Virus record (IMG/VR): IMGVR_UViG_2869947659_000001
Direction: 5' to 3' (one strand)
Origin: a virus
Taxonomy: Duplodnaviria > Heunggongvirae > Uroviricota > Caudoviricetes
Length of the DNA stretch: 22,011 nt
Each line of letters begins with the position of its first letter. The first letter of the stretch is position 1. Both the position numbers and the translations under genes were made by a program. The notes under the pieces are model-generated. The model was not told where the DNA came from, ran no database searches, and saw nothing but the letters and a program-made list of their open reading frames with translations. Positions 1,126 through 21,751 of the stretch are shown in pieces.

Positions 1126-1146
1126 TCACATCGCATAAACCACAGA

Positions 1147-1869: not shown

Positions 1870-1879
1870 GGTGCATTCC

Positions 1880-3295: not shown

Positions 3296-3306
3296 ATTCA
3301 CCCCAC

Positions 3307-3332
3307 AAAAAGCCCGCCTGAACCAGCGGGCT
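3307..3332 (-). terminator. Intrinsic terminator downstream of lom
   Basis: Stem AGCCCGC (3311-3317) / GCGGGCT (3326-3332) with an 8-nt loop, followed on the minus strand by a U-tract (A-run 3307-3311 on plus). Sits between the lom stop (3359) and the stf start (3295). Confidence 0.55.
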
Positions 3333-3358
3333 GTCATAACACTGTGTTACCTGGCTAA

Positions 3359-3958
3359 TCAGAACTTATAACCGACACCCACGATGAAACCGTCAGTGCG
3401 CCAGTCGCCACTGCCGGAACCTTCATAAGCAAGGTCAATGGCCACGGATTCGGTCGGGTTAAACTGCACGCCAGCCCCCCACGCCAGAGACGTGTTGCTG
3501 TGGCGGTTGTCATCACTCCCGGTCAGCACATCGTGCGTTTTCCCCTTGTTGTCAGTTACGCGGAGATAATCCCCGGAGAAGGTCGACACACGGCTGTAAG
3601 CCACGCCCGCCATCGCATACGCGCTGAACCATTCATTCACGCGCACAGACGGCCCCGCCATCACGCTGAACCAGCGGTTACGCACGGAATCCTCATGCCA
3701 GCGGGTATCGCTGTAATGCGTTTTTTGCTCATCTTCAGCGTTGGCATAGCTGAATGACGTCACCAGCCCCAACGTGTCCGTAAACTCATAACGGTATTTC
3801 ACGTTAATGCCCTTCAGGTCATCGCTGCCTGGCATATCAGTATGGGGCTGAAGATACCCGGCGCTCAGCGTGGACTGATGTTCAGACGCCCATGCAGGCG
3901 CACCGGATACAGCCAGACAGATGGCTGCGGACAAAATGGCTGCACAAACTTTACGCAT
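3359..3958 (-). CDS. lom: Lom outer-membrane protein (Ail/PagC family), lambda-type lysogenic-conversion moron
   Basis: 199-aa ORF with signal peptide MRKVCAAILSAAICLAVSGAPAWA and near-identity over long stretches to recalled lambda Lom (SEHQSTLSAGYL..., WHEDSVRNRWFSVMAGPSVRVNEWFSAYAMAGVAYSRVSTFSGDYLRVTDNKGKTHDVLTGSDD..., DGFIVGVGYKF). SD GAGAGG 5 nt before the ATG at 3956-3958. Confidence 0.95.
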   Translation of the reverse strand: MRKVCAAILSAAICLAVSGAPAWASEHQSTLSAGYLQPHTDMPGSDDLKGINVKYRYEFTDTLGLVTSFSYANAEDEQKTHYSDTRWHEDSVRNRWFSVMAGPSVRVNEWFSAYAMAGVAYSRVSTFSGDYLRVTDNKGKTHDVLTGSDDNRHSNTSLAWGAGVQFNPTESVAIDLAYEGSGSGDWRTDGFIVGVGYKF

Positions 3959-3982
3959 AATTACCTCTCGCTTTTCTGCAAT

Positions 3983-4006
3983 AAAAAAGGCACCATTTCT
4001 GGTGCC
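3983..4006 (-). terminator. Intrinsic terminator downstream of J
   Basis: Stem GGCACCA (3989-3995) / TGGTGCC (4000-4006) with loop TTTC, followed on the minus strand by U6 (A-run 3983-3988 on plus). Lies between the J stop (4026) and the lom start (3958). Confidence 0.6.
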
Positions 4007-4025
4007 CGTATCTGGGTTATAAAAT

Positions 4026-7000
4026 TCAGCTAATCGTGATGCCTGCAGTGGCTTTCTTCATCACAACAACCAGCAAATCGCTGATACTTGCTGTGGGATA
4101 CCAGCCATTTACCAGCCATGCCGATACAGAAAACTCCAGCGTCATGTGACCGTGACCGGCAGGCATATCAATAACACCCGTATATATCAGCGTATTATCC
4201 AGGGTCGTTCGGTTATAAATTTCAGCACCGTTTTTCTTCACTATCAGGCTGCATGACGAATAAATATTGTTATTCTTCCGCTCATGTTTAGCACCGCGAA
4301 ACGCCACCGCGGGAATAACAATTTGCCGATCAAACGGCTGATCGTCATAAACCCTGACGGTAATGGTCCCTGATGGCCACCTCTCCGGTGCCCGGGAGTC
4401 CCGTGGGAAAGGTTTGCCCACTGTTTTAACGAGATCGCCTTCAATCTGGTTCGCGGACAATTTTCCCAGAACCCGACAGTTCTTATTAATCGTGACGTTG
4501 TTGAGCGTCCCGGAGTTCGCGTTCACGTTACCGCTGATATCGGCATTTTTCGCCGTCAGCCGTCCGCCAGGTGTCAGGGAAAATGCCGGAGGATTACCGC
4601 CGCTGGTAATGGTCGGAGCCGTCAGGCGTTTCAGGAACACGTCGTTCATGAATATCTGATCGCCCTGACCAACAAACATCGGCTTTGTGTTGCCATTCGC
4701 AGGATTAATCATCGCAATCCTGTCTGCCGCCAGCAGCACCTGACTCTGCATTCCTGCTGGCGTATTCTCAATACCGGCACCGATACCCGCAATATAAAGG
4801 CGTCCGTCCTTCATCTGTTGCAGCTTCACAGCCCACATGCTGTTCAGGTTATTATTTGTATCAACCTGAACTTTCTGTATCTGCTGGATTGCAGCACTCT
4901 GATTTTCCAGTTTTTTATTGACGGTTTGCGTGATTTCATTGCTGACATTCGTAATGGACGTCCTGATTTCAGTCAGGTCCGGCGCAAGCTGACCGTTATC
5001 AATCTGCGTCCACAACTCCTTGCCGAGATGCGTTTTATTGATCAACCCTTTATAAAAACTCAGATAACCTTCCGCATCATCGCTCGCCCGACCGACGGCC
5101 TCCACAAATGCCGATTTGCCAACGGTGTTCACACTGCGAACGTAAAAATAATAATCATGGCCCGGCCTGATATTGATACTGGCGGCTATCCAGTACAGCG
5201 CCGTGCCAAGATAGCGGGCGCTGGTTTCAACCTGCCTGATATCCGCAATCCGCTTTTCCGAAAACCAGAACTCAAACTGCACCGTCGGGTCGTATACAGC
5301 CAGTTTCGGGACCGCCGTTATCTGAAAATACCCCGGTATCAGTTCAATAGTGACAGGCGCTGCCGGTGCCGCAATCCGGAACGATACCGACGCCGGATCG
5401 CCCTGCTGCCCCCGGGCATTTACCGCCCGGACTGTCAGACTGTAATTCCCCAGCGCCAGCTGCCTGAAGCGGTATGTGGTTTCCGTCGTCCTGGCTGTGC
5501 TGACCAGCCGCTCACTGCCGTCGTCCGCTGCCACGGTCAGGCGAAGCAGGAAGCTCACACCCTTCACCACCTTCGGCGTGTCCCATCGCGCCAGCACCTG
5601 ATATTCCCCGCTGTCTGCGGTGACTTCGGCGGTCAGATGCTGCACCGCTGGCGGCGTGACACCATTCACCGTGCCGCGCCGGTCACCGTCAAAGTGTGCC
5701 CCGTTATCCACGATGGCCTCTTTTTCCGGCACATGCTGCACGGCGGTGATGGCATACGTGCCGTCGTCGTTCTCACGGATACTCACGCAGCGGAACAGGC
5801 GCTGGCGCAGCGTCGGCAGCTTCAGCCCCCACACGCTGTATTCTGCAACGCCGTCAGGAACCCGGCTCACTTTCACCTTCACGCCGTCGGTGACGGACTG
5901 AACCTCCACGCTGACCGGATTGCCATTTCCGTCAACCAGGCTTATCAGCGTGGTACCGGAGGACGGCAGCGTGATTTCACGGTCGAGCGTCAGCGTCCGG
6001 GTCTGGCTGTTCACCGCCAGTACGCGACCACCGGTGCTGATACCGGCATAATCATCATCGCAGATTTCAATGACATCACCCGGTACATGGCGAAGCCCTT
6101 CTGCGCCGACGCTGAAGTCCACGGTCTGCGTTTCCAGCAGTTCCGTTTTAATCAGCCACAGCCCGGCGCGGTGCGCCTGTCCCCGGCTGGTACAGCCAAA
6201 GGCATCCATCTTCGTGACGTTACGACCGTAACGGAGAATGGCCTGCGTGTCCTCCACAAGCTCTGTCGCCGTCTCATGACCGTTGTCCGGATCAATCCAG
6301 TTCACCTCAACGACATTATGGCGGTCCTTCAGGGCGCTGAAGCTGTAGCGGAACGGCGCGCCATCATCCGGCATCACCACATTACTGCGGTTATAGGTCC
6401 ACACTTTATCCGACGGTCGGTCCTGCACGAACGTCAGCGTCTGCCCGTTCCATACCGGCATACAGCGCATCGCCGAGCAGAAATCACTGAGAACATCCCA
6501 CGCCTTACGCTGTGTGGTCAGGTAAGCGTTACAGGTGATGCGCGGCTCCGTGCCGCCAAATCCGTCCGGCACTGACTGGTCGCAGTACTGGCCGATGACA
6601 TACAGCGCCCATTTGTCCACATCTGCCGCACCAAGACGTTTCCCCATGCCGTAGCGCGGATGAGTGAGCATGTCCCACCGACACCAGGCCATGTTGTTGC
6701 TGTATGCTGGCTTAAGCGTTCCGTCCCAGATACCGCTGTATTGCCGCGTCTGCGGGTTATAGTTCGACGGCACCTGCAGAATGCGCCCGCGAAGATGATA
6801 ATTGCGACTCACCTGCTGGTTACCGAACTGCTCTGAATCCACCTGCACGCCGACCAGCGCCGTGTTCGGGTAGCACTGTTTCACATCGATGATTTCGGTG
6901 TACGACGACCAGAGCGTTTTGTTCTGCAGCTGGTCTGTGGTGCTGTCCGGTGTCATCCTGCGCATCCGGATATTAAACGGGCGCGGCGGCAGGTTACCCA

Positions 7001-7505
7001 CCACCACCGAGGCCAGATACTGCGAAGTGGTTTTGCCCTTAATGGTGATGTCTTTTTCCGTCACCCAGCCACCGTTACGCTGTATCTGAACCAGCAGGCG
7101 GACTTCCGACGGATTCCGGTCCCCCTTTGAGGTGTTTTCCACCAGTGCCTGCACACCGAAGGTCAGGCGCAGACGATCAATGTTTGCCGACGTGATGGTC
7201 CGGGTGATCGGCGTGTCGTATTTCACTTCCGTACCCAGCACAGTCTCTGAGCCGGAAGATTCAAACCCCTCCGGCGGTGTCTGCTCCTGCTCGCCGGCGC
7301 GGAACACCACCGTAACACCGGAAAAGTTTGTCTTCCCCTCGCTGTCCAGGACCGGCGTACCGTTCAGCAGCACGCTTTTTAATCCATCCACCGGACCGTC
7401 AACCGGCCCTTCGCTGATGGCATCAATCACACTCAGCAACTGCGTGGATTTCAGGTTGTCCTTCGCTTCGCGCGGGGTATGCCCCTTACTGCTGCCTTTA
7501 CCCAT
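4026..7505 (-). CDS. J: Tail tip / host specificity protein J (1159 aa)
   Basis: N-terminus [34 protein letters not shown]... and most of the length are collinear with recalled lambda J; the C-terminal receptor-binding part diverges. ATG at 7503-7505 with SD TGAGGA. Confidence 0.95.
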
Positions 7506-7527
7506 TCCTCACGCTCCATAAACGACA

Positions 7528-7547
7528 AAACCGCCCGCAGGCGGTTT
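7528..7547 (-). terminator. Terminator-like hairpin between I and J (possible attenuator or RNA-stability element)
   Basis: Stem AAACCGCC (7528-7535) / GGCGGTTT (7540-7547) with loop CGCA. On the minus strand the stem ends in UUU followed by GUCGUUUAU, immediately upstream of the J RBS. Confidence 0.35.
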
Positions 7548-7565
7548 CACATGAAACATTTTGCA

Positions 7566-8207
7566 TCAGCGACCAATCACCACAACCTGACCACCATCCC
7601 CTTCGTCTGCCGTGCTGATCTCCTGAGATACCACCCGCGACCCCACGCGCATTTCACCGTACAGAACAGGCAGAACATTGCCCTGGGCAACCATGTTATC
7701 CAGTGAGGAGAAACAGGTGTTCTGTTTGCCGTTATCCGTTGTCTGTGTACGGGGAGTTCTGGCTTTCGGTGCCAGCATCTGTGCAACACCGCCAAGCGTC
7801 ATACTGGCACCGAGAGAAAACAGCAGATTACTCGCCATAATTCCTACCCCCGGCATCCATATAGCAACCGCCATAACAGCTGCCCCCAGCACCGCCTGAA
7901 ACACACCGCCACTTTTAGCTCCCACCAGACGCGGTACTATGTGGATCACTGCACCATTTGCCAGCGGCTCATTAAGACGGGCAGACAATTCGGTTTCACC
8001 TGCATCACGCCCGGCAATGCGCACCTGATACCAGCCGTCACTCAGTTTCTGACGAAACGCCGGGAGCTGTGTGGCCAGTGCGCGGATGGCTTCAGCCCCC
8101 GTTTTCACACGAAGGTCGATGCGGCGGCCAAATCGTTGCAAATCCCCGTAAAGGCAGATGCGTGCCATTCCCGGTGACGCCAGAGGGAGTGTGTGCGTCG
8201 CTGCCAT
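7566..8207 (-). CDS. I: Tail assembly protein I (213 aa)
   Basis: MAATHTLPLASPGMARICLYGDLQRFGRRIDLRVKTGAEAIRALATQLPAFRQKLSDGWYQVRIAGRD... and the C-terminal ...KQNT.FSSLDNMVAQGNVLPVLYGEMRVGSRVVSQEISTADEGDGGQVVVIGR match recalled lambda gpI. Overlaps the 3' end of K as in lambda. Confidence 0.95.
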   Translation of the reverse strand: MAATHTLPLASPGMARICLYGDLQRFGRRIDLRVKTGAEAIRALATQLPAFRQKLSDGWYQVRIAGRDAGETELSARLNEPLANGAVIHIVPRLVGAKSGGVFQAVLGAAVMAVAIWMPGVGIMASNLLFSLGASMTLGGVAQMLAPKARTPRTQTTDNGKQNTCFSSLDNMVAQGNVLPVLYGEMRVGSRVVSQEISTADEGDGGQVVVIGR

Positions 8208-8848
8208 TTGTCGGTATACCTCTCTCGTTTACTCAGTTGTTCAGGAATATGGTGCAGCAGCTCACCGTCGCCGCAGTAAATGGCGGCATGATTCGGCACC
8301 GATGAACCAAAACAGCACAGCAGCACATCGCCCGGTTGTGCTGATGACAACGGCACCTGATACAGCCCTGTGGCCTCCAGATTATCCAGATAGAGATTCT
8401 GACCGTGACGCCACCAGTCATCCCCGCGATGAAAATCCGGCATCTCAATCCCCGCCAGATGATAAGCATCCCGGAACAGCGTGTAACAGTCCGTCACCCC
8501 GTGCTCAAAGCGCCGCCCGGTGAGATGCGGCACACAGCGGAACTTGTGAATCGCCCCCCGGCAGACCAGCCACCACGGCAAATCACTCTGCACCTGCAGC
8601 CGCCGGTCAGCCTCACTCAGCCAGGGCAGACCACCGGGATGACTGTGGACCAGTGCCACAATCTCACCCTGCATTTGTGCCCGCAGCCAGTCCTCCGGAG
8701 CCATCCGGAACCGTTCCTCCGGCTCACCGGAGATATTCTCGCTGGGAAGATACCTGTCTCCCTCCGGCGTTCTCACCACGAAGCCACACGACTCCGCTGG
8801 CGCACATCGCCGGGCGTGCGCCAGAATCGCTGATTCTGTCTGTGTCAT
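8105..8848 (-). CDS. K: Tail assembly protein K (MPN/JAMM plus NlpC/P60 domains), 247 aa from ATG 8846-8848
   Basis: MTQTESAILAHARRCAPAESCGFVV... matches recalled lambda gpK. JAMM-like HSHPGG motif and NlpC/P60-type Cys (VTDCYTLFRDAYHLAG) are present. The track ORF starts further upstream inside L and is not used. Confidence 0.9.
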   Translation of the reverse strand: MTQTESAILAHARRCAPAESCGFVVRTPEGDRYLPSENISGEPEERFRMAPEDWLRAQMQGEIVALVHSHPGGLPWLSEADRRLQVQSDLPWWLVCRGAIHKFRCVPHLTGRRFEHGVTDCYTLFRDAYHLAGIEMPDFHRGDDWWRHGQNLYLDNLEATGLYQVPLSSAQPGDVLLCCFGSSVPNHAAIYCGDGELLHHIPEQLSKRERYTDKWQRRTHSLWRHREWHASAFTGICNDLAAASTFV

Positions 8849-8852
8849 GGAT

Positions 8853-9551
8853 TTACTGAGAAAGTTTATTGATGGAAAGGAAACCGCCGAAATTACCGGT
8901 ATTGTTGCGCAACTCACACCCGCGCATACACTTGCTGCATTTGTCCTTCCGGATATCCGTCGTTGGTTTGTCGAACTCGTCAGCCACTGCCCTGCCCGTG
9001 TAACCACACTCATCAGAACGGTAGGTCCACATACAGGTATTCGCCAGCATGATACGCCCCGGGAAAACCGCGCCATCCGTCTCCGTTGGTGTGGCCAGCA
9101 CAAAAGAGGCACTGACCGCGCTCAGTTCGCTGCACTGCTCGATGCGCCAGCGGCTGATCACCTCCTGCTCCGGATCGGCGTCACTGTTTCCGTTGACGAA
9201 GTTCACCGCATCCAGAAAACGGGCGTAAACCTTACGCCGGACCACCGTTCCGCCGACCAGACTCTGCAGATCTTCCGCCATCCCGGCGACCATACCGTAC
9301 AGGTTAGAAACCGTCAGCGTGGGGCGCGTACTGGTGCCTTTGCCATTCAGTTCAAAACCACTCCCCTGAATGGGATACGGCTGATACTGTCGCCCCTGCC
9401 AGGTGACCGGCTCACCTTTTTCGTTCTGCTCATTACAGAAAAAATAACGTTCTCCACCGACCTCTGTCAGGTCGATTTCCCAGAGCACCACGCTGGCCGA
9501 CTGCTCCGCACGGGTGCATTCATTCAGTGTTTCCTGCCGGATATCCTGCAT
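8853..9551 (-). CDS. L: Minor tail protein L (232 aa)
   Basis: MQDIRQETLNECTRAEQSASVVLWEIDLTEVGGERYFFCNEQNEKGEPVTWQGRQYQPYPIQGSGFELNGKG... collinear with recalled lambda gpL, including the C-terminal Cys cluster CSKCMRGCELRNN. Confidence 0.95.
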   Translation of the reverse strand: MQDIRQETLNECTRAEQSASVVLWEIDLTEVGGERYFFCNEQNEKGEPVTWQGRQYQPYPIQGSGFELNGKGTSTRPTLTVSNLYGMVAGMAEDLQSLVGGTVVRRKVYARFLDAVNFVNGNSDADPEQEVISRWRIEQCSELSAVSASFVLATPTETDGAVFPGRIMLANTCMWTYRSDECGYTGRAVADEFDKPTTDIRKDKCSKCMRGCELRNNTGNFGGFLSINKLSQ

Positions 9552-9880
9552 CAGTTCACCACCTGTTCAAAATCGGCCGTTACAGTCACCCATAACGCCC
9601 CCACGCTTGCCGACCATTTACGACAAACCACCCTGATCGGTTTCCAGTCATAAGGTGGTGTCCACTGAAATGCGCGGACGCCACCGTGCCGTTCCAGAAA
9701 GGCTTTTAAAGGTGGGTGTTCACCTTTACGAACACGTATCGTCACGCTGTAAGTCGACAGCAGATTATTCAGTCCCGCCGGGCGACGCTGTTCATAACCA
9801 TCACCCAGCTTCACTGCCACCACTTTTGGCTCTGATACCACATTCATATCCGGGCGCACCTTCCAGCGAAACGTCTCCAT
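9551..9880 (-). CDS. M: Minor tail protein M (109 aa)
   Basis: METFRWKVRPDMNVVSEPKVVAVKLGDGYEQRRPAGLNNLL... matches recalled lambda gpM in length and sequence. Confidence 0.95.
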   Translation of the reverse strand: METFRWKVRPDMNVVSEPKVVAVKLGDGYEQRRPAGLNNLLSTYSVTIRVRKGEHPPLKAFLERHGGVRAFQWTPPYDWKPIRVVCRKWSASVGALWVTVTADFEQVVN

Positions 9881-11034
9881 TACCGGTATGCTCCACTTAA
9901 CCGGCCACCATCACGGGCCTGCTGTTGCATAAAGTCCGCGGCCGCTTTTTTCCCGAGGTCATAAACCACCTTCAGTGCTGCCGGACCTATCTGCCCGTTC
10001 GTGCCGTCGTTATTGATCCCGATGTTGTACTGCGGGGCAAACATCACCATGCCTGAACCACCAGTATCCGCCACAACCCCCAGCTTACCATCAGCACCGC
10101 GACGCAGTGGCAGAATGGCTTCAGGTCCCGCTTCCCCCATCACACCCGCGCCTTTTGCAAAAGCAAAAAACGTCGGACGGTTAACCACCGTGCCACTGTA
10201 GCGACTCAAATCAGCAGACTGGTAAACACCGCCATCAGCATTAGTCGTGAAGCCGAATAAAGAGCCGACGCCCTTTACCGCCTGCATCATGGCCATCTGT
10301 GCCATAATTCTGGCCATATCTGACAACAGGGAAGAGGTGAAGGATTTAAAATTCAGCTTACCGGTGGTACAGAATGTCGCCAGTGCATTACCGGCACTGC
10401 TGAATGCCACTGTAAACATCTGTTCTGCCGTTCCCACCGCATTATCCGCATCCGCCGTAAAATTCTGAAACGCCCGCATGGCACCGTTTTTCCAGTCGCC
10501 CTGCGCCACTTCCAGTTCCTGCCAGTAGCGTTTGTTTTCATTCAGTTGTCGCTTCAGGCTCCCCTTCAGCACCTCCTCAGCCCTCCGGTAGTCCTCCGTC
10601 CCGTAAGTGCCTTTCTGGCGACTGTCATTCTCAAGCTGTTGCAACTGTTGCCGGTATTCCTGCCGGATGCGCAACTGTGCCTGGTAGCGCTGCCGCTGCT
10701 TATCCCCCATACCTGCAGTGGCAATATCCAGATTGTGCTGCTCACGCAGTGCACGTTCTTTGTCTGCCAGCTGGCTGGTCAGCTGAACCGTTTTTTTTCT
10801 CAGGTCGTTAAGCGCTGTCTGTTTCTGCAGCTCCTGCTGTTTCACATCCAGCAGCGTCAGCGCCTGAATCAGCTCATTCTTACGGGCCAGCACACTCTTT
10901 TCATCTGCCGTCAGCTTTTTCCCGTCCAGGTCGCTGATGCGCTGCTGCAGGGCCAGAAGCTGTTTATGCGCTTCAGTCATCCTTTCAGTGGCAATGCCTG
11001 CTGACTGTCTGGCAGCAGCAATCTGCCCTTCCAC
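9880..11034 (-). pseudogene. H: Tape measure protein H, C-terminal fragment (384 codons), separated from its 5' part by IS600::IS629
   Basis: C-terminus ...NNDGTNGQIGPAALKVVYDLGKKAAADFMQQQARDGGRLSGAYR matches the recalled lambda H C-terminus. The frame is open up to the IS600 end at 11035; the track 'start' at 11034 is an internal GTG Val codon. Confidence 0.85.
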
Positions 11035-11241
11035 TGAGGTAGCCTGAGTTTAACGGACACTCCTTCCTGAAATAGAATGGCATCAGAAGGAGCTAATAAT
11101 GAGCAGAAAAAACCAACGTTACTCTAAAGAGTTCAAAGCCGAAGCTGTCAGAACGGTTCTTGAAAATCAACTTTCGATCAGTGAAGGTGAACCGCCCCGG
11201 GAATCCTGGAGACTAAACTCCCTGAGAAAGAGGTAAACAGG

Positions 11242-11559
11242 ATGACTAAAAATACTCGTTTTTCCCCCGAAGTCCGTCAGAGGGCGATTCGTATGGTTCT
11301 GGAAAGTCAGGGCGAATATGACTCACAGTGGGCGGCAATTTGTTCCATTGCCCCAAAGATTGGCTGTACACCGGAGACTCTGCGTGTCTGGGTACGCCAG
11401 CATGAGCGGGATACCGGAGGCGGTGATGGCGGGCTCACCACCGCTGAACGTCAGCGTCTGAAAGAGCTGGAACGTGAAAATCGTGAACTGCGCCGCAGTA
11501 ACGATATCCTTCGCCAGGCTTCCGCTTATTTTGCGAAGGCGGAGTTCGACCGCCAGTGA
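11242..11559 (+). CDS. IS629 OrfA (105 aa, HTH/leucine-zipper transposase N-terminal protein)
   Basis: [105 protein letters not shown] matches recalled IS629 OrfA. Confidence 0.9.
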
Positions 11560-12446
11560 TGCCACTGCTGGATAAGCTGCGTAAGCTGTACGGGGTCGGA
11601 CCGGTATGCAGTGAACTACATATTGCCCCGTCAACGTATTACCACTGTCAGCAACAGCGACATCATCCTGATAAACGCAGTGCCCGTGCGCAGCGCGATG
11701 ACTGGCTGAAGAAAGAGATACTGCGCGTATACGATGGGAATCATCAGGTATACGGTGTGCGTAAAGTCTGGCGTCAGTTGTTACGGGAAGGCATCAGAGT
11801 GGCCAGATGCACTGTGGCACGTCTCATGGCGGTTATGGGACTTGCCGGTGTTCTCCGGGGTAAAAAGGTCCGTACGACCATCAGCCGGAAAACCGTTGCC
11901 GCAGGCGACCGCGTAAACCGTCAGTTCGTGGCAGAACGACCTGACCAGCTGTGGGTGGCTGATTTTACTTACGTCAGCACATGGCAGGGCTTCGTCTATG
12001 TGGCGTTCATTATTGATGTGTTTGCCGGATACATCGTGGGGTGGCGGGTCTCATCGTCCATGGAAACGACATTCGTGCTGGATGCTCTGGAGCAGGCGTT
12101 ATGGGCCCGTCGACCGTCCGGCACGGTCCATCACAGTGATAAAGGTTCTCAGTATGTATCGCTGGCCTACACACAGCGGCTTAAGGAAGCCGGATTACTG
12201 GCATCAACAGGAAGTACAGGCGACTCGTATGACAACGCGATGGCGGAGAGCATCAATGGTCTTTACAAAGCGGAGGTAATACACCGTAAGAGCTGGAAAA
12301 ACCGTGCAGAAGTGGAACTGGCCACACTCACGTGGGTGGACTGGTATAATAATCGACGATTGCTGGAAAGGCAGGGCCACATCCCTCCGGCAGAAGCAGA
12401 AAAAGCTTATTATGCTTCCATCGGAAACGATGATCTGGCAGCCTGA
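11556..12446 (+). CDS. IS629 OrfB (296 aa, DDE transposase catalytic domain), in the -1 frame relative to OrfA
   Basis: DDE motif context ([25 protein letters not shown]). ATGA overlap with the orfA stop. Confidence 0.9.
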
Positions 12447-12659
12447 GTTCACAGATAAAACACTCTCCAGGAAACTCGGGGCGGTTCAAGGGTTCAAGGC
12501 GCTTCCCGATTATCCCTTCCTGAAGGCACTTTAGGACAATGGGTTACCGCCGCCAGAAAAGGGCTCGGTACTCCTGGTTCCCGCACGGTGGCTGAACTGG
12601 AATCTGAAATTCTGCAACTGCGTAAGGCGTTAAATGAAGCTCGCCTTGAGCGAGATATA

Positions 12660-12668
12660 TTAAAAAAA
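12660..12668 (+). promoter_or_regulatory. IS600 programmed -1 ribosomal frameshift window (TTA AAA AAA G; A7 run) linking orfA to orfB
   Basis: orfA codons TTA AAA AAA GCA. A -1 slip on the A-run enters the orfB frame (...KKSNSVFCTGVAEKYALIEQWRQQFPIEAMCQVF...). IS3-family elements use A6G/A7 windows for OrfAB fusion. Confidence 0.6.
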
Positions 12669-12748
12669 GCAACAGCGTATTTTGCACAGGAGTCGCTGAA
12701 AAATACGCGTTAATCGAACAATGGCGACAACAATTTCCCATTGAAGCG

Positions 12749-13567
12749 ATGTGTCAGGTATTTGGTGTATCCAGGAGCGGTTATTACAACTGGGTACAGC
12801 ATGAACCCTCAGACAGAAAACAAAGTGATGAGCGGCTAAAACTGGAGATTAAGGTGGCACATATCCGCACTCGCGAAACATATGGAACCCGGCGGCTCCA
12901 GACGGAGCTGGCAGAGAATGGCATCATCGTTGGTCGTGACCGACTGGCACGTCTTCGTAAGGAGCTAAGGCTACGCTGTAAGCAGAAACGCAAGTTCAGA
13001 GCGACTACGAACCCGAACCACAATCTGCCAGTTGCGCCAAATCTGCTGAACCAGACGTTCGCTCCTACAGCACCAAATCAGGTCTGGGTGGCGGACCTGA
13101 CGTATGTTGCCACACAGGAGGGATGGTTGTACCTCGCTGGCATCAAAGATGTTTATACGTGCGAAATTGTCGGCTACGCCATGGGAGAGCGCATGACAAA
13201 AGAGCTGACAGGTAAAGCCCTGTTTATGGCGCTCAGGAGCCAGCGCCCACCTGCCGGGCTAATCCACCACTCTGATCGAGGTTCACAGTACTGCGCATAC
13301 GATTACCGGGTCATACAGGAGCAGTCTGGTCTGAAAACATCAATGTCGCGTAAAGGTCACTGTTACGACAACGCTCCGATGGAAAGCTTCTGGGGAACGC
13401 TGAAAAATGAGAGCCTGAGCCACTATCGTTTTAATAACCGGGATGAAGCCATCTCAGTAATACGGGAATACATTGAGATTTTCTACAATCGTCAGCGTCG
13501 TCACTCTCGTCTGGGGAATATCTCCCCGGCAGCCTTCAGGGAAAAATATCATCAGATGGCTGCTTAA
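12749..13567 (+). CDS. IS600 OrfB (copy A), DDE transposase catalytic domain (272 aa from first Met; frame open upstream to the frameshift window)
   Basis: Identical protein to the copy at 16367-17185. DDE context WVADLTYV, HHSDRGSQY, YDNAPMES. Confidence 0.85.
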   Translation: MCQVFGVSRSGYYNWVQHEPSDRKQSDERLKLEIKVAHIRTRETYGTRRLQTELAENGIIVGRDRLARLRKELRLRCKQKRKFRATTNPNHNLPVAPNLLNQTFAPTAPNQVWVADLTYVATQEGWLYLAGIKDVYTCEIVGYAMGERMTKELTGKALFMALRSQRPPAGLIHHSDRGSQYCAYDYRVIQEQSGLKTSMSRKGHCYDNAPMESFWGTLKNESLSHYRFNNRDEAISVIREYIEIFYNRQRRHSRLGNISPAAFREKYHQMAA

Positions 13568-13610
13568 AAAAAGAACAAATGGTAGTGTCCGCTATTGCCA
13601 GTACACCTCA

Positions 13611-15374
13611 GACAGCCTGGTCGGCGTACTGCATGGCATTAATACGCGCAATTTCCCGCTGATGTCGTGCAGCTTCCGTTTCATTCATCCGGTTCAGCGC
13701 GGCATTTTCAGCATTCCGGCGTTTCTGTTGCTCCTGGTAATTCCGTTCTGCCTGCGCTTTTGCATCCTGCAAATCCTTCCGGCGTTTTTTCTCCTGAAGA
13801 TCGTTAAGACGCTGCTGATCGTACTCCACCTGTGTGGAGGCGTTTGTCCACGGATATTTTTTCGCGCGCTGAATTTTTTCCTGTAACGCATCAATCTGCG
13901 CATCCAGCGAGTCTTCACGACCAATATTCATGGCCGCATCCCAGAACTGCTTCCACCAGTCAGACAAGGTTTGCAGCGTACTACCCAGCGCATTGAGATT
14001 ATTATCAATATCAGATGTGCGTTTACCGGTTTCCTCTGCCAGCGCAGACATGGCGATCCGGGCCGCATCACTGGACCGCCCCTGCTCCCCAAGGACGCGT
14101 ATCTGCTCAAGCTGAGTGGCAGTCAAAAAATGCAGCGCATTGTCCAGCGCCTTCGCGGCATTTACAGGATCATCCTTCAGCCGCTTAAACTGATTTATGG
14201 TATCGCTGACCGACTGGCCAACCGATCGCTCCATCTGTGCGGCAGCTTTCGCCACCATACCAATATCGTTTCCATGAAATGCCCCACTGCCCACCACCTG
14301 TGCCAGCGCACCGGCTGCCGCATGTTGCGTGATACCATTCCCGGATATGGCCCGGCTGAGTTTCCACAACTGCCCGACAGTGACACCGGCATAATGTCCC
14401 GTCAGCGCCAGCTGATGGTTAAATTCCTCGCCCTCCTTCCGGCCGTCATGCCAGGCTTTACCCAGACCCAGGACCGCCGCGACAAGTCCGCCAATAACGC
14501 CGCCAGTCATCATGCCTTTCGGCGACATCAGTGCGCCTGTCCATCCGGCACGGTTAGCCAGCGTTATCCCGGATCCCCTCAGCGCACCAAAATTGCCGCG
14601 CGCCATCTGACTGATTAACACCCCCAGCTCCCGCCGGGCTGCCGCACTTTTCAGCCCCAGCGAATGTGTGGCTTTTCCTGCCCGCTCCATTTTGCGGATA
14701 TACACTTCTGCAGCACTGCTTACCCCCAGCTGAGCCGCCCTGGCGCGAAGCAACTCAGAAGACGACAGATTCTGGCGGGTTGCCTGCTCTTTAAGCTGGC
14801 GGATAAACGCCGCTTTCTGCCGGGTGGCCTGTTCCTCTGCCTGCGTCAGGGCACGGGTTTTCGCCGTGATCTCCGAAATCAGCGCCAGATAATCCTGCTG
14901 ACCAACCCCGCCACTGTTTCTGGCCTGTCGGATCTGCTGCTGAATACGCTGTAATTCCTGAAGCCCCGCACCGGCCTGTTTCACACTGTCAATCTGGCGA
15001 TAAAAGGCGGCAGCCGCTTTATCCTGCGCCTCCGCCAGTGCCCTGGCCTGCGCCTGTTCCTCGCGCATTTTCTGATTCAGGGCATCCACGCGCAGACGGG
15101 TTTGTTCCACCTCACGGGCCATGCGTTCATGAGCCCGTGCATTCTTCTCCACCGTCTGCGCATGGGCTGATGCTGCTGTTGCAGCCGAAGAAGCCGCATG
15201 CATTGTCTGCCGGGCCGCCTGAGTCTGACGCTCCATAAAACGCTGCATACGGGCAGAAGACCGTTCTGCATCACCGGCTGCACCATTCAGAAGGTTTTTG
15301 ATACGGGGAATTTCATTTTTAAACTCTGCCGCATCAATCCCCAAATCAATGACCAAGTTGGCTATCTGGTCCAT
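13611..15374 (-). pseudogene. H: Tape measure protein H, N-terminal fragment (588 codons)
   Basis: ATG at 15372-15374 with SD GGAGGTG. N-terminus MDQIANLVIDLGIDAAEFKNEIPRIKNLL... resembles the recalled lambda H N-terminus. The frame runs into the IS600 end and stops at its terminal TGA (13608-13610). Joining to 9880-11034 after removing the IS and one flanking triplet gives an in-frame H of about 971 aa. Confidence 0.85.
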
Positions 15375-15689
15375 AACGCACACCTCCGGAAATACCTTCC
15401 CCAAGATGCATCAGTTCTTCGTCCGTTCGCTCCGGTATCCCGTTCTCTTCCGGTAAAAGGCTGAAATCAGCCACCGCAGCATCACTGCTGCCGGACACCA
15501 TTCTCACGATCAATGCCTTCAGCGAGGCAAACTGCGCATCCATCCACACATCACTGAAGCTCTGCATCCGGAAATAATCGCCCCCTCACCAAGCTCAGTG
15601 GCCGACATTTCCGACAGCATCCGCCGCCAGTCTGCCCGCCGGAACTCCCGGGCAAGCCGCATGACAAACTGCATTTCCCGCGTCAGGAC
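15346..15689 (-). pseudogene. T: T segment of the G-T tail assembly chaperone, apparently frame-broken
   Basis: Candidate shift site CCG GAA AAG at the end of G (15689-15697). The -1 frame is open from there to TGA at 15519-15521. A different frame is open from 15585 to stop 15346-15348, ending 29 nt inside H as T does relative to H in lambda. One extra C in the C5 run 15581-15585 would join them into a continuous T domain of about 114 codons. Confidence 0.4.
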
Positions 15690-16069
15690 TTTTCCGGCGT
15701 CAGCGCCTCATGATCATCATCCCCGGCATTCTCAATGGTCCCCATACCGCTCAGCGACAGAACCCTCTCCGCCCCCGCGCCCAGCGCATCATACGACCAT
15801 GTTGTCATAATGGATGCGCAAAGCGTCTCAACATCCTGAGACTGCTCAGCATTCCACAGTGAGCGGGAAACCAGCCAGGCATTGATATCCATTCCCATAC
15901 GCAGAAAAGCAATCTGTCGTTCAGCCTCCGGCAGTTCTCCCTCCTGTGCATCAAACTTTGCCGTTCGCTGCTGAACAAACGTCAGATATTCAATTCTCTG
16001 CAGCCCGGACAGCTCACTGAGCACCACGGACTGTTTTTCATAATTAAACGTATCCTGTTTCAGAAACAT
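15683..16069 (-). CDS. G: Tail assembly chaperone G (128 aa from ATG 16067-16069)
   Basis: MFLKQDTFNYEKQSVVLSELSGLQRIEYLTFVQQ... matches recalled lambda gpG (MFLKTESFEHNGVTVTLSELSALQRIEHLA...). SD GGAGAA upstream. The track ORF starts at an upstream TTG. Confidence 0.9.
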   Translation of the reverse strand: MFLKQDTFNYEKQSVVLSELSGLQRIEYLTFVQQRTAKFDAQEGELPEAERQIAFLRMGMDINAWLVSRSLWNAEQSQDVETLCASIMTTWSYDALGAGAERVLSLSGMGTIENAGDDDHEALTPEKS

Positions 16070-16085
16070 CATGTTCTCCGGATGC

Positions 16086-16108
16086 AAAAAGCCCCGGATA
16101 ACCGGGGC
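16086..16108 (-). terminator. Intrinsic terminator-like hairpin between V and G
   Basis: Stem GCCCCGG (16091-16097) / CCGGGGC (16102-16108) with loop ATAA, followed on the minus strand by U5 (A-run 16086-16090 on plus) and then the G RBS and ATG. Confidence 0.5.
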
Positions 16109-16127
16109 AATGATGAGTATCGTCCTG

Positions 16128-16320
16128 TTATGGTGCGCTGACGGTCACCGCAGCCACTGCCACAAACTCTCCGTCAGAGGTCATGCCCACGATGCTGACA
16201 CTGCCCTGCTTCACGCCTTTCACCGTGGCCACAAGCCCGCTCAGGGTCACCGAAGCAGTCTGAGGATCTGACGAATGCACACTGATCGCTTTGTCACTGG
16301 CCCCGTCAGGTTTTACTGTA
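16128..16320 (-). pseudogene. V: Major tail protein V, C-terminal fragment (Ig-like domain)
   Basis: ...FTVKPDGASDKAISVHSSDPQTASVTLSGLVATVKGVKQGSVSIVGMTSDGEFVAVAAVTVSAP resembles the recalled lambda gpV C-terminal domain. Separated from the N-terminal part by IS600. Confidence 0.85.
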
Positions 16321-16366
16321 AAGTGAGGTGTACTGGCAATAGCGGACACTACCATTTGTTCTTTTT

Positions 16367-17185
16367 TTAAGCAGCCATCTGATGATATTTTTCCCTGAAG
16401 GCTGCCGGGGAGATATTCCCCAGACGAGAGTGACGACGCTGACGATTGTAGAAAATCTCAATGTATTCCCGTATTACTGAGATGGCTTCATCCCGGTTAT
16501 TAAAACGATAGTGGCTCAGGCTCTCATTTTTCAGCGTTCCCCAGAAGCTTTCCATCGGAGCGTTGTCGTAACAGTGACCTTTACGCGACATTGATGTTTT
16601 CAGACCAGACTGCTCCTGTATGACCCGGTAATCGTATGCGCAGTACTGTGAACCTCGATCAGAGTGGTGGATTAGCCCGGCAGGTGGGCGCTGGCTCCTG
16701 AGCGCCATAAACAGGGCTTTACCTGTCAGCTCTTTTGTCATGCGCTCTCCCATGGCGTAGCCGACAATTTCGCACGTATAAACATCTTTGATGCCAGCGA
16801 GGTACAACCATCCCTCCTGTGTGGCAACATACGTCAGGTCCGCCACCCAGACCTGATTTGGTGCTGTAGGAGCGAACGTCTGGTTCAGCAGATTTGGCGC
16901 AACTGGCAGATTGTGGTTCGGGTTCGTAGTCGCTCTGAACTTGCGTTTCTGCTTACAGCGTAGCCTTAGCTCCTTACGAAGACGTGCCAGTCGGTCACGA
17001 CCAACGATGATGCCATTCTCTGCCAGCTCCGTCTGGAGCCGCCGGGTTCCATATGTTTCGCGAGTGCGGATATGTGCCACCTTAATCTCCAGTTTTAGCC
17101 GCTCATCACTTTGTTTTCTGTCTGAGGGTTCATGCTGTACCCAGTTGTAATAACCGCTCCTGGATACACCAAATACCTGACACAT
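16367..17185 (-). CDS. IS600 OrfB (copy B), DDE transposase catalytic domain (272 aa)
   Basis: Identical to the copy A OrfB. In this copy the orfB frame is +1, not -1, relative to orfA. Confidence 0.85.
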   Translation of the reverse strand: MCQVFGVSRSGYYNWVQHEPSDRKQSDERLKLEIKVAHIRTRETYGTRRLQTELAENGIIVGRDRLARLRKELRLRCKQKRKFRATTNPNHNLPVAPNLLNQTFAPTAPNQVWVADLTYVATQEGWLYLAGIKDVYTCEIVGYAMGERMTKELTGKALFMALRSQRPPAGLIHHSDRGSQYCAYDYRVIQEQSGLKTSMSRKGHCYDNAPMESFWGTLKNESLSHYRFNNRDEAISVIREYIEIFYNRQRRHSRLGNISPAAFREKYHQMAA

Positions 17186-17234
17186 CGCTTCAATGGGAAA
17201 TTGTTGTCGCCATTGTTCGATTAACGCGTATTTT

Positions 17235-17522
17235 TCAGCGACTCCTGTGCAAAATACGCTGTTGCTTTTTTAATATATCTCGCTCAAGGCGAGCTTCATT
17301 TAACGCCTTACGCAGTTGCAGAATTTCAGATTCCAGTTCAGCCACCGTGCGGGAACCAGGAGTACCGAGCCCTTTTCTGGCGGCGGTAACCCATTGTCCT
17401 AAAGTGCCTTCAGGAAGGGATAATCGGGAAGCGCCTTCACTGATCGAAAGTTGATTTTCAAGAACCGTTCTGACAGCTTCGGCTTTGAACTCTTTAGAGT
17501 AACGTTGGTTTTTTCTGCTCAT
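17235..17522 (-). CDS. IS600 OrfA variant (copy B), 95 aa with altered C-terminus
   Basis: MSRKNQRYSKEFKAEAVRTVLENQLSISEGASRLSLPEGTLGQWV...LERDILKKQQRILHRSR. After the A-run it diverges from the copy A reading (…KKATAYFAQESLKNTR) because the run is A6 rather than A7. Confidence 0.8.
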   Translation of the reverse strand: MSRKNQRYSKEFKAEAVRTVLENQLSISEGASRLSLPEGTLGQWVTAARKGLGTPGSRTVAELESEILQLRKALNEARLERDILKKQQRILHRSR

Positions 17523-17586
17523 TATTAGCTCCTTCTGATGCCATTCTATTTCAGGAAGGAGTGTCCGTTAAACTCAGGCTACCTCA

Positions 17587-18134
17587 AAGGTCAGTGTGGT
17601 GGTTGCTCCCGCTTTGACACTGACAGATGCCGGTGCCACCGTCAGTCCGGTAACACCCACGGTTTCAGCGCCCTCCTCTGCCAGATACGGACGCCCCACA
17701 CCGCTGATTTTTACAGTACGGGTCATCACCTCTTTTGAGGTAATGGTTTTACCCAGTGAACTCAGCCAGCCACGGAAAACATCAACCGTACCGTTGGGGT
17801 ATTTGATACGAAACGCGCAGACTTCACCGGAATCGAACAACTGAACCAGTTTTTTCTGCCCGCTGTCACCCGGACGCCAGGCCAGCGTCGCCAAAGTATC
17901 ACCGACGGATTTCTGCCCCTGGGTTGTCGTTTTCCAGTCTGCATCTTCATCATCGAGATAAGTGTCATCTTCTGCATCAGCGGTCATTTCGCCAAGTTGC
18001 AGATCCTTCACCATCGCAAGACGCAGCCAGTCAGTGTCCGACAAAGGGTTCGCAAACGCATCGCCCTTGCCGGTGTACATCCAGAACGTCGTTCCCGCAC
18101 CTTTCGTCTTTGCCAGTGGATTTGGTGTGGTCAT
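17587..18134 (-). pseudogene. V: Major tail protein V, N-terminal fragment
   Basis: ATG 18132-18134 with [46 protein letters not shown]... matches the recalled lambda gpV N-terminus. The frame runs 12 nt into IS600 to TGA 17574-17576. The track ORF starts at an upstream GTG. Confidence 0.85.
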
Positions 18135-18144
18135 TGCCACCTCC

Positions 18145-18546
18145 TTAATTCGTGTACGTGATCTGGTACGTGATTTCCGCCATCGCCCAGGTGGCCATCT
18201 CATTATCACGTTGATAGTTAAAACCGAGTGGGATCATGGTGTCGATGAGTCCGGAAAGCACCGGAATATCCTTCATGGCCGGAAATATGGTGTTCTCCAT
18301 CCACGTATCCAGCTCAGAATCCGGCGCCTGTGCACGGACGAAAACGGCAATATGCAGAACAGCCTGCCAGTCGTCCTCATCCGTCATTTTTCCGGTGTAC
18401 TGCGCATCACTCAGCCACACCGCCACGGCGGGCAGTTCCTGCGCATCAATAAATGCCGGAAGCCCGTCAAAAAGCACGACATTCCCCCCGCATTCGCCCT
18501 TCAGGCTTGCCAGTACTGCCTGGCGGATTTGTGTGTGCCTGTTCAT
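18145..18546 (-). CDS. U: Tail terminator / minor tail protein U (133 aa)
   Basis: [18 protein letters not shown]...[15 protein letters not shown]...[21 protein letters not shown]... resembles recalled lambda gpU. ATGA overlap with the Z stop. Confidence 0.9.
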
Positions 18547-19275: not shown

Positions 19276-19361
19276 GTAAGCGTAAACTGACCGCCGCATG
19301 TAGCCATTAAGCCTGTATTGGTAACGTAGGTGCCCACCTTTTCAACTAGTGGACACCTGTT

Positions 19362-19781
19362 ATGGAACAGAAAGCATTATCTGCAGAACCCCGCAGATCA
19401 TTTTCAAATGAGTTTAAACTTCAAATGGTTAAACTGGCTTCACAACCAGGAGCCTCTGTTGCCCGTATTGCCCGGGAACACGATATCAATGATAACCTGC
19501 TGTTCAAATGGCTCAGGCTCTGGCAGAACGAAGGGCGCATATCGCGGCGTCTTCCGGTAACAACCTCTTCTGACACTGGCGTTGAATTATTACCTGTGGA
19601 GATAACGCCGGATGAGCCGAAAGAACCTGTGGCTGCTCTTACTCCGTCTTTATCTACTCAGACTACAGTTAGTGCCAGCTCCTGCAAGGTGGAGTTCCGT
19701 CACGGTAACATGACGCTGGAAAATCCTTCACCAGAGCTGCTCACAGTGTTGATCCGTGAACTGACCGGGAGGGGACGATGA
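19362..19781 (+). CDS. IS66-family Orf1 (TnpA-like accessory protein, 139 aa)
   Basis: First of three co-oriented ORFs inside the inverted repeats. N-terminal HTH-like region (FSNEFKLQMVKLASQPGASVARIAREHDINDNLLFKWL). Confidence 0.85.
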   Translation: MEQKALSAEPRRSFSNEFKLQMVKLASQPGASVARIAREHDINDNLLFKWLRLWQNEGRISRRLPVTTSSDTGVELLPVEITPDEPKEPVAALTPSLSTQTTVSASSCKVEFRHGNMTLENPSPELLTVLIRELTGRGR

Positions 19782-20128
19782 TCTCACTCCCGTCAGGCAC
19801 CCGCATCTGGCTCGTTGCTGGGATAACCGATATGCGTAAGTCTTTCAACGGGCTGGGTGAACAGGTACAGCATGTGCTGAATGATAATCCCTTCTCCGGT
19901 CACCTGTTCATCTTCCGTGGCCGACGGGGTGACATGATTAAAATCCTGTGGGCTGATGCTGATGGTCTGTGCCTGTTCACCAGACGCCTGGAGGAAGGCC
20001 AGTTTATCTGGCCTGCTGTGCGTGACGGCAAGGTATCCATTACCCGCTCGCAACTGGCAATGCACCTCGATAAGCTGGACTGGCGTCAGCCAAAAACATC
20101 CCGCCTTAATGCACTGACAATGTTGTAA
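19778..20128 (+). CDS. IS66-family Orf2 (TnpB-like, 116 aa)
   Basis: ATGA overlap with orf1. Conserved IS66 Orf2 pattern (IWLVAGITDMRKSFNGL...HLFIFRGRRGDMIKILWADADGLCLF). Confidence 0.85.
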   Translation: MISLPSGTRIWLVAGITDMRKSFNGLGEQVQHVLNDNPFSGHLFIFRGRRGDMIKILWADADGLCLFTRRLEEGQFIWPAVRDGKVSITRSQLAMHLDKLDWRQPKTSRLNALTML

Positions 20129-20158
20129 AAATGTCATGGCCGGATTATAAAAACGGCC

Positions 20159-21751
20159 ATGAATCAAAAATACCTCATTCGCATTGCAGAACTGGAATGC
20201 CAGCTCCGTCAGAAAGACCAGCAACTGAGTCTGGTTGAAGAGACGGAGGCCTTCCTGCGCTCTGCACTGGCCCGCGCCGAAGAAAAGATCGAAGAAGATG
20301 AACGGGAAATAGAACATCTGCGGGCTCAGATAGAAAAACTGCGCCGGATGCTGTTCGGTACCCGTTCTGAAAAACTGCGTCGTGAAGTTGAACAGGCTGA
20401 GGCCCTGCTGAAACAACGCGAACAGGACAGTGATCGTTACAGTGGGCGGGAAGACGATCCGCAGGTTCCCCGCCAGTTGCGACAGTCTCGTCATCGTCGC
20501 CCGTTACCGGAGCATCTGCCCCGCGAAATAAATCGCCTGGAGCCAGAAGAAAGCTGTTGCCCGGAGTGTGGCGGTGAGCTGGATTATCTGGGGGAAGTCA
20601 GCGCAGAACAACTGGAACTGGTGAGCAGCGCTCTGAAAGTGATCCGCACAGAACGGGTAAAAAAAGCCTGTACAAAATGTGACTGCATCGTTGAAGCACC
20701 GGCACTATCCCGTCCGATAGAGCGTGGTATCGCGGGCCCGGGGTTACTTGCCCGCGTGTTAACGGGAAAATACTGCGAACACCTGCCACTGTATCGTCAG
20801 AGTGAAATTTTTGCCCGTCAGGGTGTCGAACTGAGCCGTGCATTACTCTCCAACTGGGTTGACGCGTGCTGCCAGTTAATGACGCCGCTGAATGATGCTC
20901 TGTACCGTTATGTAATGAACAGCCGCAAAGTTCACACTGATGACACACCAGTAAAAGTGCTGGCACCGGGCAGGAAGAAGGCGAAAACAGGATATATCTG
21001 GACGTATGTCCGGGATGACAGGAATGCCGGTTCGCCAGAGCCTCCGGCGGTCTGGTTCGCCTACTCACCGGACCATCAGGGTAAACATCCGGAGCAGCAC
21101 CTTAGTCCCTTCCGGGGTATCCTGCAGGCAGATGCGTTTAATGGTTACGATCGGCTGTTCAGTGCCGAACGAGAAGGCGGCGCGTTGACGGAAGCAGGAT
21201 GCTGGGCTCATGCGCGGCGCAAAGTCCACGATGTATATATCAGTACCAAAAGCGCGACAGCGGAAGAAGCCCTGAAACTAATCGGTGAGCTGTACGCCAT
21301 CGAGCACGAAATACGCGGGTTGCCGGTGTCTGAACGCCTGGCGGTCAGGCAAATGCAGAGTAAACCGCTACTGACTTCCCTGTATAAGCTGATGCAGGAG
21401 AAAGAACACACGTTATCGAAAAAATGCCGTCTGAGAGATGCGTTCCGGTATATCAGGAAGCACTGGGTTGCGTTGTGCAACTTCAGTGATGATGGTCTGG
21501 CTGAGGCGGATAATAATGCCGCGGAAAGAGCGCTTCGTGCAGTCTGTCTCGGAAAGAAAAACTTTATGTTCTTCGGCAGCGATCACGGTGGAGAGCGTGG
21601 TGCGCTACTGTACGGGCTGATCGGCACCTGCCGACTGAACGGTATCGATCCGGAAGCGTATCTGCGCTATATCCTGAGCGTACTGCCGGAATGGCCTTCC
21701 AACCGTGTTGACGAACTCCTGCTATGGAACGTAGCACTCACCAATAAATAA
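20159..21751 (+). CDS. IS66-family transposase Orf3 (TnpC, 530 aa)
   Basis: N-terminal coiled-coil / leucine-zipper region, Cys cluster CPECGGEL...CTKCDC (zinc-finger-like) and C-terminal DDE-type region. Stop TAA 21749-21751 lies just inside the right terminal repeat. Confidence 0.9.
   Translation: MNQKYLIRIAELECQLRQKDQQLSLVEETEAFLRSALARAEEKIEEDEREIEHLRAQIEKLRRMLFGTRSEKLRREVEQAEALLKQREQDSDRYSGREDDPQVPRQLRQSRHRRPLPEHLPREINRLEPEESCCPECGGELDYLGEVSAEQLELVSSALKVIRTERVKKACTKCDCIVEAPALSRPIERGIAGPGLLARVLTGKYCEHLPLYRQSEIFARQGVELSRALLSNWVDACCQLMTPLNDALYRYVMNSRKVHTDDTPVKVLAPGRKKAKTGYIWTYVRDDRNAGSPEPPAVWFAYSPDHQGKHPEQHLSPFRGILQADAFNGYDRLFSAEREGGALTEAGCWAHARRKVHDVYISTKSATAEEALKLIGELYAIEHEIRGLPVSERLAVRQMQSKPLLTSLYKLMQEKEHTLSKKCRLRDAFRYIRKHWVALCNFSDDGLAEADNNAAERALRAVCLGKKNFMFFGSDHGGERGALLYGLIGTCRLNGIDPEAYLRYILSVLPEWPSNRVDELLLWNVALTNK

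Follow-up and report, generated by a model that had tools for sequence, protein, structure and literature searches.

A nested IS600::IS629 insertion at the site of a 123-bp deletion in the tape-measure gene of a decayed Shigella boydii prophage

Introduction

In a viral DNA of 22,011 nucleotides (IMG/VR record IMGVR_UViG_2869947659_000001; this whole stretch is called the window), the tape-measure gene H is interrupted by a copy of IS600 that itself contains IS629. The letters of the window had been read as a clean insertion of IS600 into H, in which the flanking triplets CAC and GAC represented a target duplication altered at one base after the insertion. We asked whether the two sides of H were contiguous before IS600 was present, and in which order and by which route the two elements came to lie there. 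We conclude with high confidence that the nested IS600::IS629 occupies a place in a 1013-aa tape-measure gene from which 123 bp have been lost in an IS-associated deletion.

Results

The window matched the Shigella boydii chromosome CP026766.1 (GCA_002949475.1) with 100% identity over 18.4 kb, and its minus strand was found to carry a lambda-type tail module whose genes run J-I-K-L-M-H-T-G-V-U-Z. The locus is a decayed lambda-like prophage tail module of Shigella boydii, and the prophage is defective. Tape-measure genes of the lambda gpH type were recognized by TMP_2, TMP_4 or Tape_meas_lam_C domains and by their place in a lambda-type tail module, with G/T on one side and M on the other. Pfam families were found on both pieces of H, the genes stood in the order V-G-T-H-M-L-K-I-J, and TIGR01541 (tape_meas_lam_C) matched the C-terminal piece with 284 bits. 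The intact H of EIEC CFSAN029787 (L001) is 3042 nt long and encodes 1013 aa; the 3' part of H in the window gave a 99% alignment with it, up to L001 position 12400. H and the element that interrupts it are arranged in the window as follows:

9880-11034, minus strand: 3' part of H, codons 630-1013 of the intact 1013-aa gene (ORF call)
11035-11187, plus strand: left 153 nt of IS600 copy A, comprising the left inverted repeat and codons 1-29 of orfA (ATG at 11100)
12500-13610, plus strand: right 1111 nt of IS600 copy A, with the rest of orfA (to 12713), orfB and the right inverted repeat
12662-12668 and 12749-13567, plus strand: A7 run and orfB of IS600 copy A
13608-15374, minus strand: 5' part of H, codons 1-588, ending ...YADQAV (translation; Pfam TMP_2)
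11034/13611, no strand: deletion point, at which 123 nt of H (L001 12401-12523) are missing and the IS600::IS629 composite stands in their place

The 3' part starts at GTG (Val630), the reverse complement of the CAC triplet, and the TGA stop codon of the 5' part comes from the end of IS600. The nesting itself was real: IS629 lies in orfA of an IS600 that lies in H. The outer element spans exactly 11035-13610, as had been predicted, and has the IS600-type inverted ends TGAGGTAGCC...GTACACCTCA. We took as the marks of IS600 a length of about 1264 bp, imperfect inverted repeats TGAGG...CCTCA, an HTH-encoding orfA and a DDE/rve-encoding orfB in the -1 frame, and a 3-bp duplication. In-silico excision of 11188-12499 (1312 nt) left an IS600 of 1264 nt with an intact orfA of 100 aa. 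Its identity was 99.9% to the full-length copy in L030 and 99.6% to that in L020, and a second copy in the window (copy B) differed from it only by one A in a homopolymer run; the left part showed 100% identity to the corresponding stretch of copy B. The size, the inverted repeats and the -1 arrangement of orfA and orfB were those of IS600. The gene tables listed Pfam HTH_Tnp_1 and rve for orfA/orfB, and the 272-aa orfB product matched the IS3-family transposase model NF033516 with 333 bits. Places that matched the IS600/IS629 part of the query overlay PGAP features named 'IS3-like element IS600 family transposase'. The 3-bp duplication was absent; copy A is flanked by CAC (11032-11034) and GAC (13611-13613), and its observed junctions read CTTCCAC/TGAGGTAG and CCTCA/GACAGCC.

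Copy B and further full-length copies served as controls.

16324-17586, minus strand: IS600 copy B (control), 1263 nt, with A6 instead of A7

Copy B interrupts the tail-tube gene V as a simple insertion: AAG is perfectly duplicated at 16321-16323 and 17587-17589, and in L001, L018 and L025, where this site is unoccupied, the two flanks are contiguous and overlap by 3 nt. The control copies in L030 and L020 are bordered by target duplications of CTG and GCT, respectively. The copy in L020, in another genome, is an independent IS600 insertion in the same H gene. Judging from their reading frames, neither IS600 copy of the window looks able to produce its own transposase: in copy A, IS629 splits orfA, and in copy B, the A run between orfA and orfB has lost 1 nt. 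We also considered whether copies A and B, which are inverted relative to each other, had given copy A its mismatched flanks by inversion or recombination; this was rejected, since the intervening segment is collinear with the relatives and copy B keeps its perfect duplication.

We compared the window with EIEC CFSAN029787 (L001), with ten Shigella and E. coli loci that encode an identical M protein (L017-L026), in which the gap was measured between the same two 60-nt flanks, and with contig L034 (Logan SRR5504024). The flanks of copy A were separated by exactly 123 nt (41 codons) in 11/11 related prophages and also in L034. Positions 178-11034 of the window aligned with L001 1548-12400 and positions 13611-16323 with L001 12524-15237; the 123 nt at L001 12401-12523 had no counterpart in the window, and the gap fell exactly at the IS ends. 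Elsewhere in the window these 123 nt were not found, with chance matches of 9-20 nt only. They encode RDAAIQRENERYEKAIKKNTRATRNDEATRLLLQYSQQQAQ, residues 589-629 of H, between ...YADQAV and VEGQIA.... Because they lie between the flanks in all relatives, CAC and GAC are two native codons; GAC (coding GTC) is Val588 and CAC (coding GTG) is Val630 of the 1013-aa protein. Contig L034 has an unoccupied H site, with the 123 nt present and no IS. On either side of these 123 nt it matches the window without a mismatch, over 2713 nt from 16323 down to 13611 and over 501 nt from 11034 down to 10534, i.e., 3,214 nt at 100% identity. The contig begins exactly at the boundary of copy B, suggesting that its isolate already carried copy B.

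These comparisons bear directly on the original prediction, which held that a single clean IS600 insertion had made a 3-bp duplication (CAC or GAC) that mutated later, and that excision restores the ancestral gene of 971 aa. Removing IS600 and one triplet does leave H in frame and open over 971 aa, and the two triplets, rightly identified as the flanks, differ at one base. However, the ancestral gene encodes 1013 aa, and the in-frame outcome is an arithmetic coincidence, since the deletion comprises 41 whole codons. The triplets are not a duplication with a one-base mismatch but native codons 123 nt apart. A point change after the insertion is very improbable, as 0 substitutions were found in the 3,214 flanking nt compared with L034. 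A clean insertion implies contiguous flanks at the unoccupied site of relatives, and non-contiguous flanks had been named beforehand as the result that would speak against it; the 123 nt were present in every relative examined, i.e., L001, L017-L026 and L034, the last with flanks 100% identical to those of the window. The account of a simple insertion with a mutated duplication is thereby refuted, and we leave it practically no probability. The unoccupied sites point instead to an IS600-associated deletion, and copy A lacks a target duplication because of that deletion, not because of the identity of the element.

An identical 588-aa truncated H product was present on 17 contigs, and the 384-aa H product together with its IS600 junction on 5 contigs from other samples. 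Both H/IS600 junctions thus recur in independent assemblies, indicating that the configuration is not an assembly artefact but real and lineage-wide. Cases in which the H site is occupied include ERR5888545, SRR14635761, GCA_001906295 and GCA_013972985. Among complete E. coli RefSeq genomes, 0 records covered the H/IS600/IS629 junction block at >=80%; by this coverage criterion, the configuration is absent from them.

We then considered how 123 bp could be lost flush with both ends of an IS that stayed in place. A deletion that preceded the IS600 insertion was excluded, because a later insertion would have given matching triplets. Recombination between two directly repeated copies is the classical explanation of unmatched IS flanks. 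Applied to this locus, IS600 would have inserted into H at both the Val630 and the Val588 codon, with the two copies in one orientation, and homologous recombination between them would have left a single copy and removed the intervening 123 bp. The remaining IS600 would then have its left flank from one insertion and its right flank from the other. We give this route about an even chance. The other candidate starts from one IS600 inserted at Val630 or Val588, followed by an IS-end-associated deletion of 126 nt (one copy of the duplication plus the 123 nt) with the IS kept. Its end product would be identical, with a deletion flush with the IS ends and no duplication left, and we regard it as possible, at rather less than an even chance.

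The preference for two insertions with recombination is a judgement, made because IS3-family elements transpose by copy-out-paste-in, which does not in itself delete flanking DNA while the donor stays, and because the IEE-linked deletions accompany loss of the IS. Deletions adjacent to IS3-family elements have been reported in EHEC, which favours the single-copy route, but in those cases the IS itself is lost (PMC9943667). Only 1-2 nt of microhomology were present at the break points that the single-copy route would require, which speaks against it. Intermediates were not found, either as IS600 at one of the codons with the 123 nt retained or as two copies together. Four scans of genome_contigs and metagenome_contigs looked for the hypothetical intermediate junctions, which would read CCTCA/CACCTGTGCC (right end of IS600, CAC and the start of the 123 nt) and ATCCCTGAC/TGAGGTAG (end of the 123 nt, GAC and the left end of IS600), and all gave 0 hits; with few Shigella isolates in these collections, the negative result weighs little.

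The inner element and its right-hand junction have the following features:

11188-12488, plus strand: IS629, 1301-nt variant, with orfA 11242-11559, orfB 11556/11559-12446 and ALIL pseudoknot 11523-11630
12489-12491, plus strand: second copy of the AGG duplication, abutting the right end of IS629 and equal to 11185-11187
12492-12499, plus strand: 8 additional nt, GTTCAAGG, which belong to neither element and repeat 12484-12491 in tandem (the 5 terminal nt of IS629 followed by AGG)

IS629 had been placed at 11188-12496. The start is correct, but the right end lies at 12488, as shown by the inverted repeat, by canonical copies and by six sibling copies. A 25-nt terminal inverted repeat pairs 11188-11212 with 12464-12488, whereas no inverted repeat was found with the right end placed at 12496 or 12497. 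The ends TGAACCGCCCCGGG...CGGGGCGGTTCA and near-identity to deposited elements identify IS629: a canonical 1310-bp IS629 from an STEC genome aligned with 11188-12488 with one 9-nt gap, and 1310-nt elements deposited as IS629 (AJ556162.1 from phage BP-4795; LC567824.1; Stx phages) were 96.3-96.9% identical end to end (1-1301). Its transposase matched the IS3-family model NF033516. The six sibling 1301-nt copies in the CP026766 genome, of which five are on the chromosome and one is on the virulence plasmid, share the end ...CGGGGCGGTTCA (...GGTTCA) and are bordered by perfect abutting 3-nt duplications (CTC, CGT, GAC, TAT, CCC and GTC). For IS629, a duplication of 3 bp (sometimes 4 bp) was expected. 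The perfect AGG duplication that had been predicted is real, at 11185-11187 and 12489-12491, abutting the true ends of IS629; the first AGG is the last 3 nt of the left part of IS600 and was the target. The 1301-nt IS629 entered orfA of an IS600 by ordinary IS3-family transposition, duplicating AGG. In other places, IS629 abuts IS600 in an STEC genome (L011), and a second IS629-in-IS600 nest exists in the CP026766 genome (L028).

The RF01497 (ALIL) model matched along its whole length (1-117) with 101.3 bits, the gathering score being 50, and the 9-nt gap fell in an unpaired spacer; a programmed -1 frameshift signal is thus predicted between orfA and orfB of IS629. The idea that the 9-nt deletion removed the slippery site and inactivated IS629 was rejected, because the shift site lies 5' of ALIL stem 1 (PMC5009743), the ALIL model still scores 101 bits, and the variant occurs in at least 7 copies, the six others each having a perfect duplication. 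From these copies the 1301-nt variant appears active, and its multiplicity in the CP026766 genome implies that the 9-nt shortening of the frameshift spacer is apparently tolerated. The six siblings are nearly identical among themselves, and the nested IS629 differs from them at 4 positions. Set against 0 differences in the 3,214 nt of flanking sequence (L034), these 4 differences suggest that the nested IS629 probably derives from another donor copy and did not decay in place.

Relative to IS600 copy B, the insert measures 1312 nt, i.e., 1301 + 3 + 8. Removing only IS629 and one AGG left an 8-nt scar and a frameshifted orfA. The extra 8 nt were absent from 6/6 other IS629 copies; the junction of the IS629 end and AGG was duplicated in tandem after the insertion. 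The 8-nt repeat and the IS600/IS629 junction (11188-12499) are covered by a single complete assembly, CP026766, so the repeat, and possibly the nest too, might be an assembly error. This is highly unlikely: excising exactly 1312 nt restores a perfect IS600, a SKESA contig from a second isolate breaks off 2 nt ahead of the IS629 junction, and long-read errors do not typically take the form of an 8-nt tandem duplication. The repeat at 12484-12499 may also be the footprint of an aborted or misrepaired IS629 end cleavage, and/or the flush deletion in H may be a one-step product of copy-out-paste-in; we consider this unlikely, though it is somewhat less so than an assembly error. If true, either would be a little-documented by-product of an IS3-family transposase, not plain slippage or homologous recombination.

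The nesting had also been taken to fix the order of events. It does establish that IS629 entered an IS600 and not the reverse; that IS600 was in H first is the most parsimonious order but is not fixed by nesting alone. IS629 likely arrived after IS600 had entered H, because this H locus is the single place recorded for the chimeric 45-aa orfA'::IS629 product, and because an IS600 with a split orfA is without its own transposase. A pre-formed IS600::IS629 composite could instead have entered H as a unit, using the IS600 ends and transposase supplied in trans, in which case IS629 was not later. Nesting alone is compatible with such a transfer, and the genome has full-length IS600 copies with intact reading frames (L030) as well as the other nest (L028). 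The restriction of the 45-aa product to the H locus argues against it, as does the preference of IS3-family transposases for acting in cis, and we hold the transfer of a composite to be quite unlikely. The later arrival of IS629 is nevertheless not strictly fixed, as no H::IS600 isolate without IS629 was seen. In GCA_013972985.1, the SKESA contig ends 2 nt before the IS600/IS629 junction, as expected at an assembly fork made by the nest; this is only suggestive of the nest being present in that isolate too.

Discussion

The H locus illustrates that an in-frame excision product and near-matching flanking triplets are not proof of a clean insertion, and that the unoccupied site of a relative must be checked. 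Together with the 123-bp loss, the H::IS600 junctions provide a stable marker for an S. boydii sub-lineage. The finding is real but ordinary, and it matters little beyond correct annotation; the whole case is standard IS3-family biology combined with standard Shigella prophage decay, of a kind already known.

Three known systems and the canonical element invite comparison. Recombination between two direct IS repeats likewise leaves one IS whose flanks are two native sequences, with the interval lost; the difference is that the two-copy intermediate was not found here by the junction scans. In EHEC O157, small structural polymorphisms, adjacent deletions and IEE-promoted excision are associated with IS629 (PMC9943667). 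The likeness to this IEE pathway is that an IS3-family element is tied to the loss of flanking DNA. However, the pathway excises the IS, whereas in H the IS stays and flanking DNA is lost, and the element adjacent to the deletion is IS600, not IS629.

The nested IS629 shares with the canonical 1310-bp element (BP-4795, Stx phages) its ends, the -1 arrangement of orfA and orfB, the ALIL, the 3-nt duplication and 96-97% identity. It differs in being 9 nt shorter, between ALIL stem 1 and stem-loop 2, with an OrfA of 105 instead of 108 aa, and in that this 1301-nt variant has at least 7 copies in the CP026766 genome. The closest general likeness is to IS-driven pseudogenization and prophage decay in Shigella, in which IS1, IS2, IS600, IS629 and others are expanding; H and V are disrupted by IS in the same way. 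Several IS within 22 kb, nested IS and copies without target duplications are traits shared with that decay. There is no difference in kind, and the 123-bp in-frame loss from H marks an S. boydii sub-lineage within it.

A 1301-nt IS629 variant

The IS629 nested in IS600 copy A, which interrupts the tape-measure gene H, belongs to a variant present in at least seven copies in S. boydii (CP026766/CP026767).

Window 11188-12488: IS629 variant, 1301 nt, gap at about 11554/11555
L027-L032, 2447-3747 in each locus: sibling IS629 copies

In the variant, the ALIL frameshift signal has a spacer shortened by 9 nt, and OrfA is 105 aa. The nested copy is separated from the six others by four differences. 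Each of these six is flanked by a perfect 3-nt duplication; therefore, the variant seems mobile.

At the right junction of the nested copy (window 12484-12499), the 8-nt unit GTTCAAGG is followed directly by a second GTTCAAGG, a tandem duplication in a stretch covered by one assembly. The repeated unit consists of the final 5 nt of IS629 and the AGG target duplication, and none of the six sibling copies carries such a repeat. Slippage or an aborted transposase event may have produced it, both being candidates.

IS600 copies and repeated insertion into H

IS600 was compared in the tail-tube gene V (copy B), in a second nest of the same genome and in gene H of a related prophage.

Window 16324-17586, minus strand: IS600 copy B, 1263 nt
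L028 2084-4650 (CP026766, about 3.50 Mb): second IS629-in-IS600 nest of the genome
L020 3765-5028 (UGBG01000002.1): IS600 in H, at a site other than that in the window

In copy B, the A run between orfA and orfB is A6, compared with A7 in the equivalent run of copy A (window 12662-12668), and orfA is cut to 95 aa; these changes probably disable normal OrfAB production. The IS600 of the second nest likewise shows a 1-nt gap in the A-run region and a truncated orfA of 95 aa. Its IS629 lies at nt 365 of the IS600 and is flanked by a CGT duplication; the IS600 itself has no target duplication (flanks CTT and GTG) and is therefore another rearranged copy. A perfect GCT duplication flanks the IS600 in L020, where the 123 nt of H missing from the window are intact. 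This insertion is independent, and gene H has been struck more than once.

Decay and boundaries of the prophage

Window 1-1125: 374-aa ORF
Window 15346-15567: tail assembly gene T, called as 73 aa
Window 19276-21751: region holding an IS66-family element whose ORFs (139, 116 and 530 aa) lie at 19362-21751

The end of the 374-aa ORF, carried over by alignment of the window with the EIEC CFSAN029787 prophage locus, matches the 3' end of ipaHe. This gene, which encodes an E3 ligase effector of type III secretion, adjoins the same prophage in EIEC and is annotated there as frameshifted. Homology to related prophages ends at about 19275, within or beside gene Z. The window lacks the head and terminase genes that the EIEC locus carries, and the prophage is therefore a remnant. 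The gene call for T gives 73 aa in the window, L018, L025 and L026, compared with 109 aa in other relatives, and 231 nt of gene U (window 18128-18358) are kept in the window and gone from L018 and L025. These differences are further lineage-specific marks of decay.
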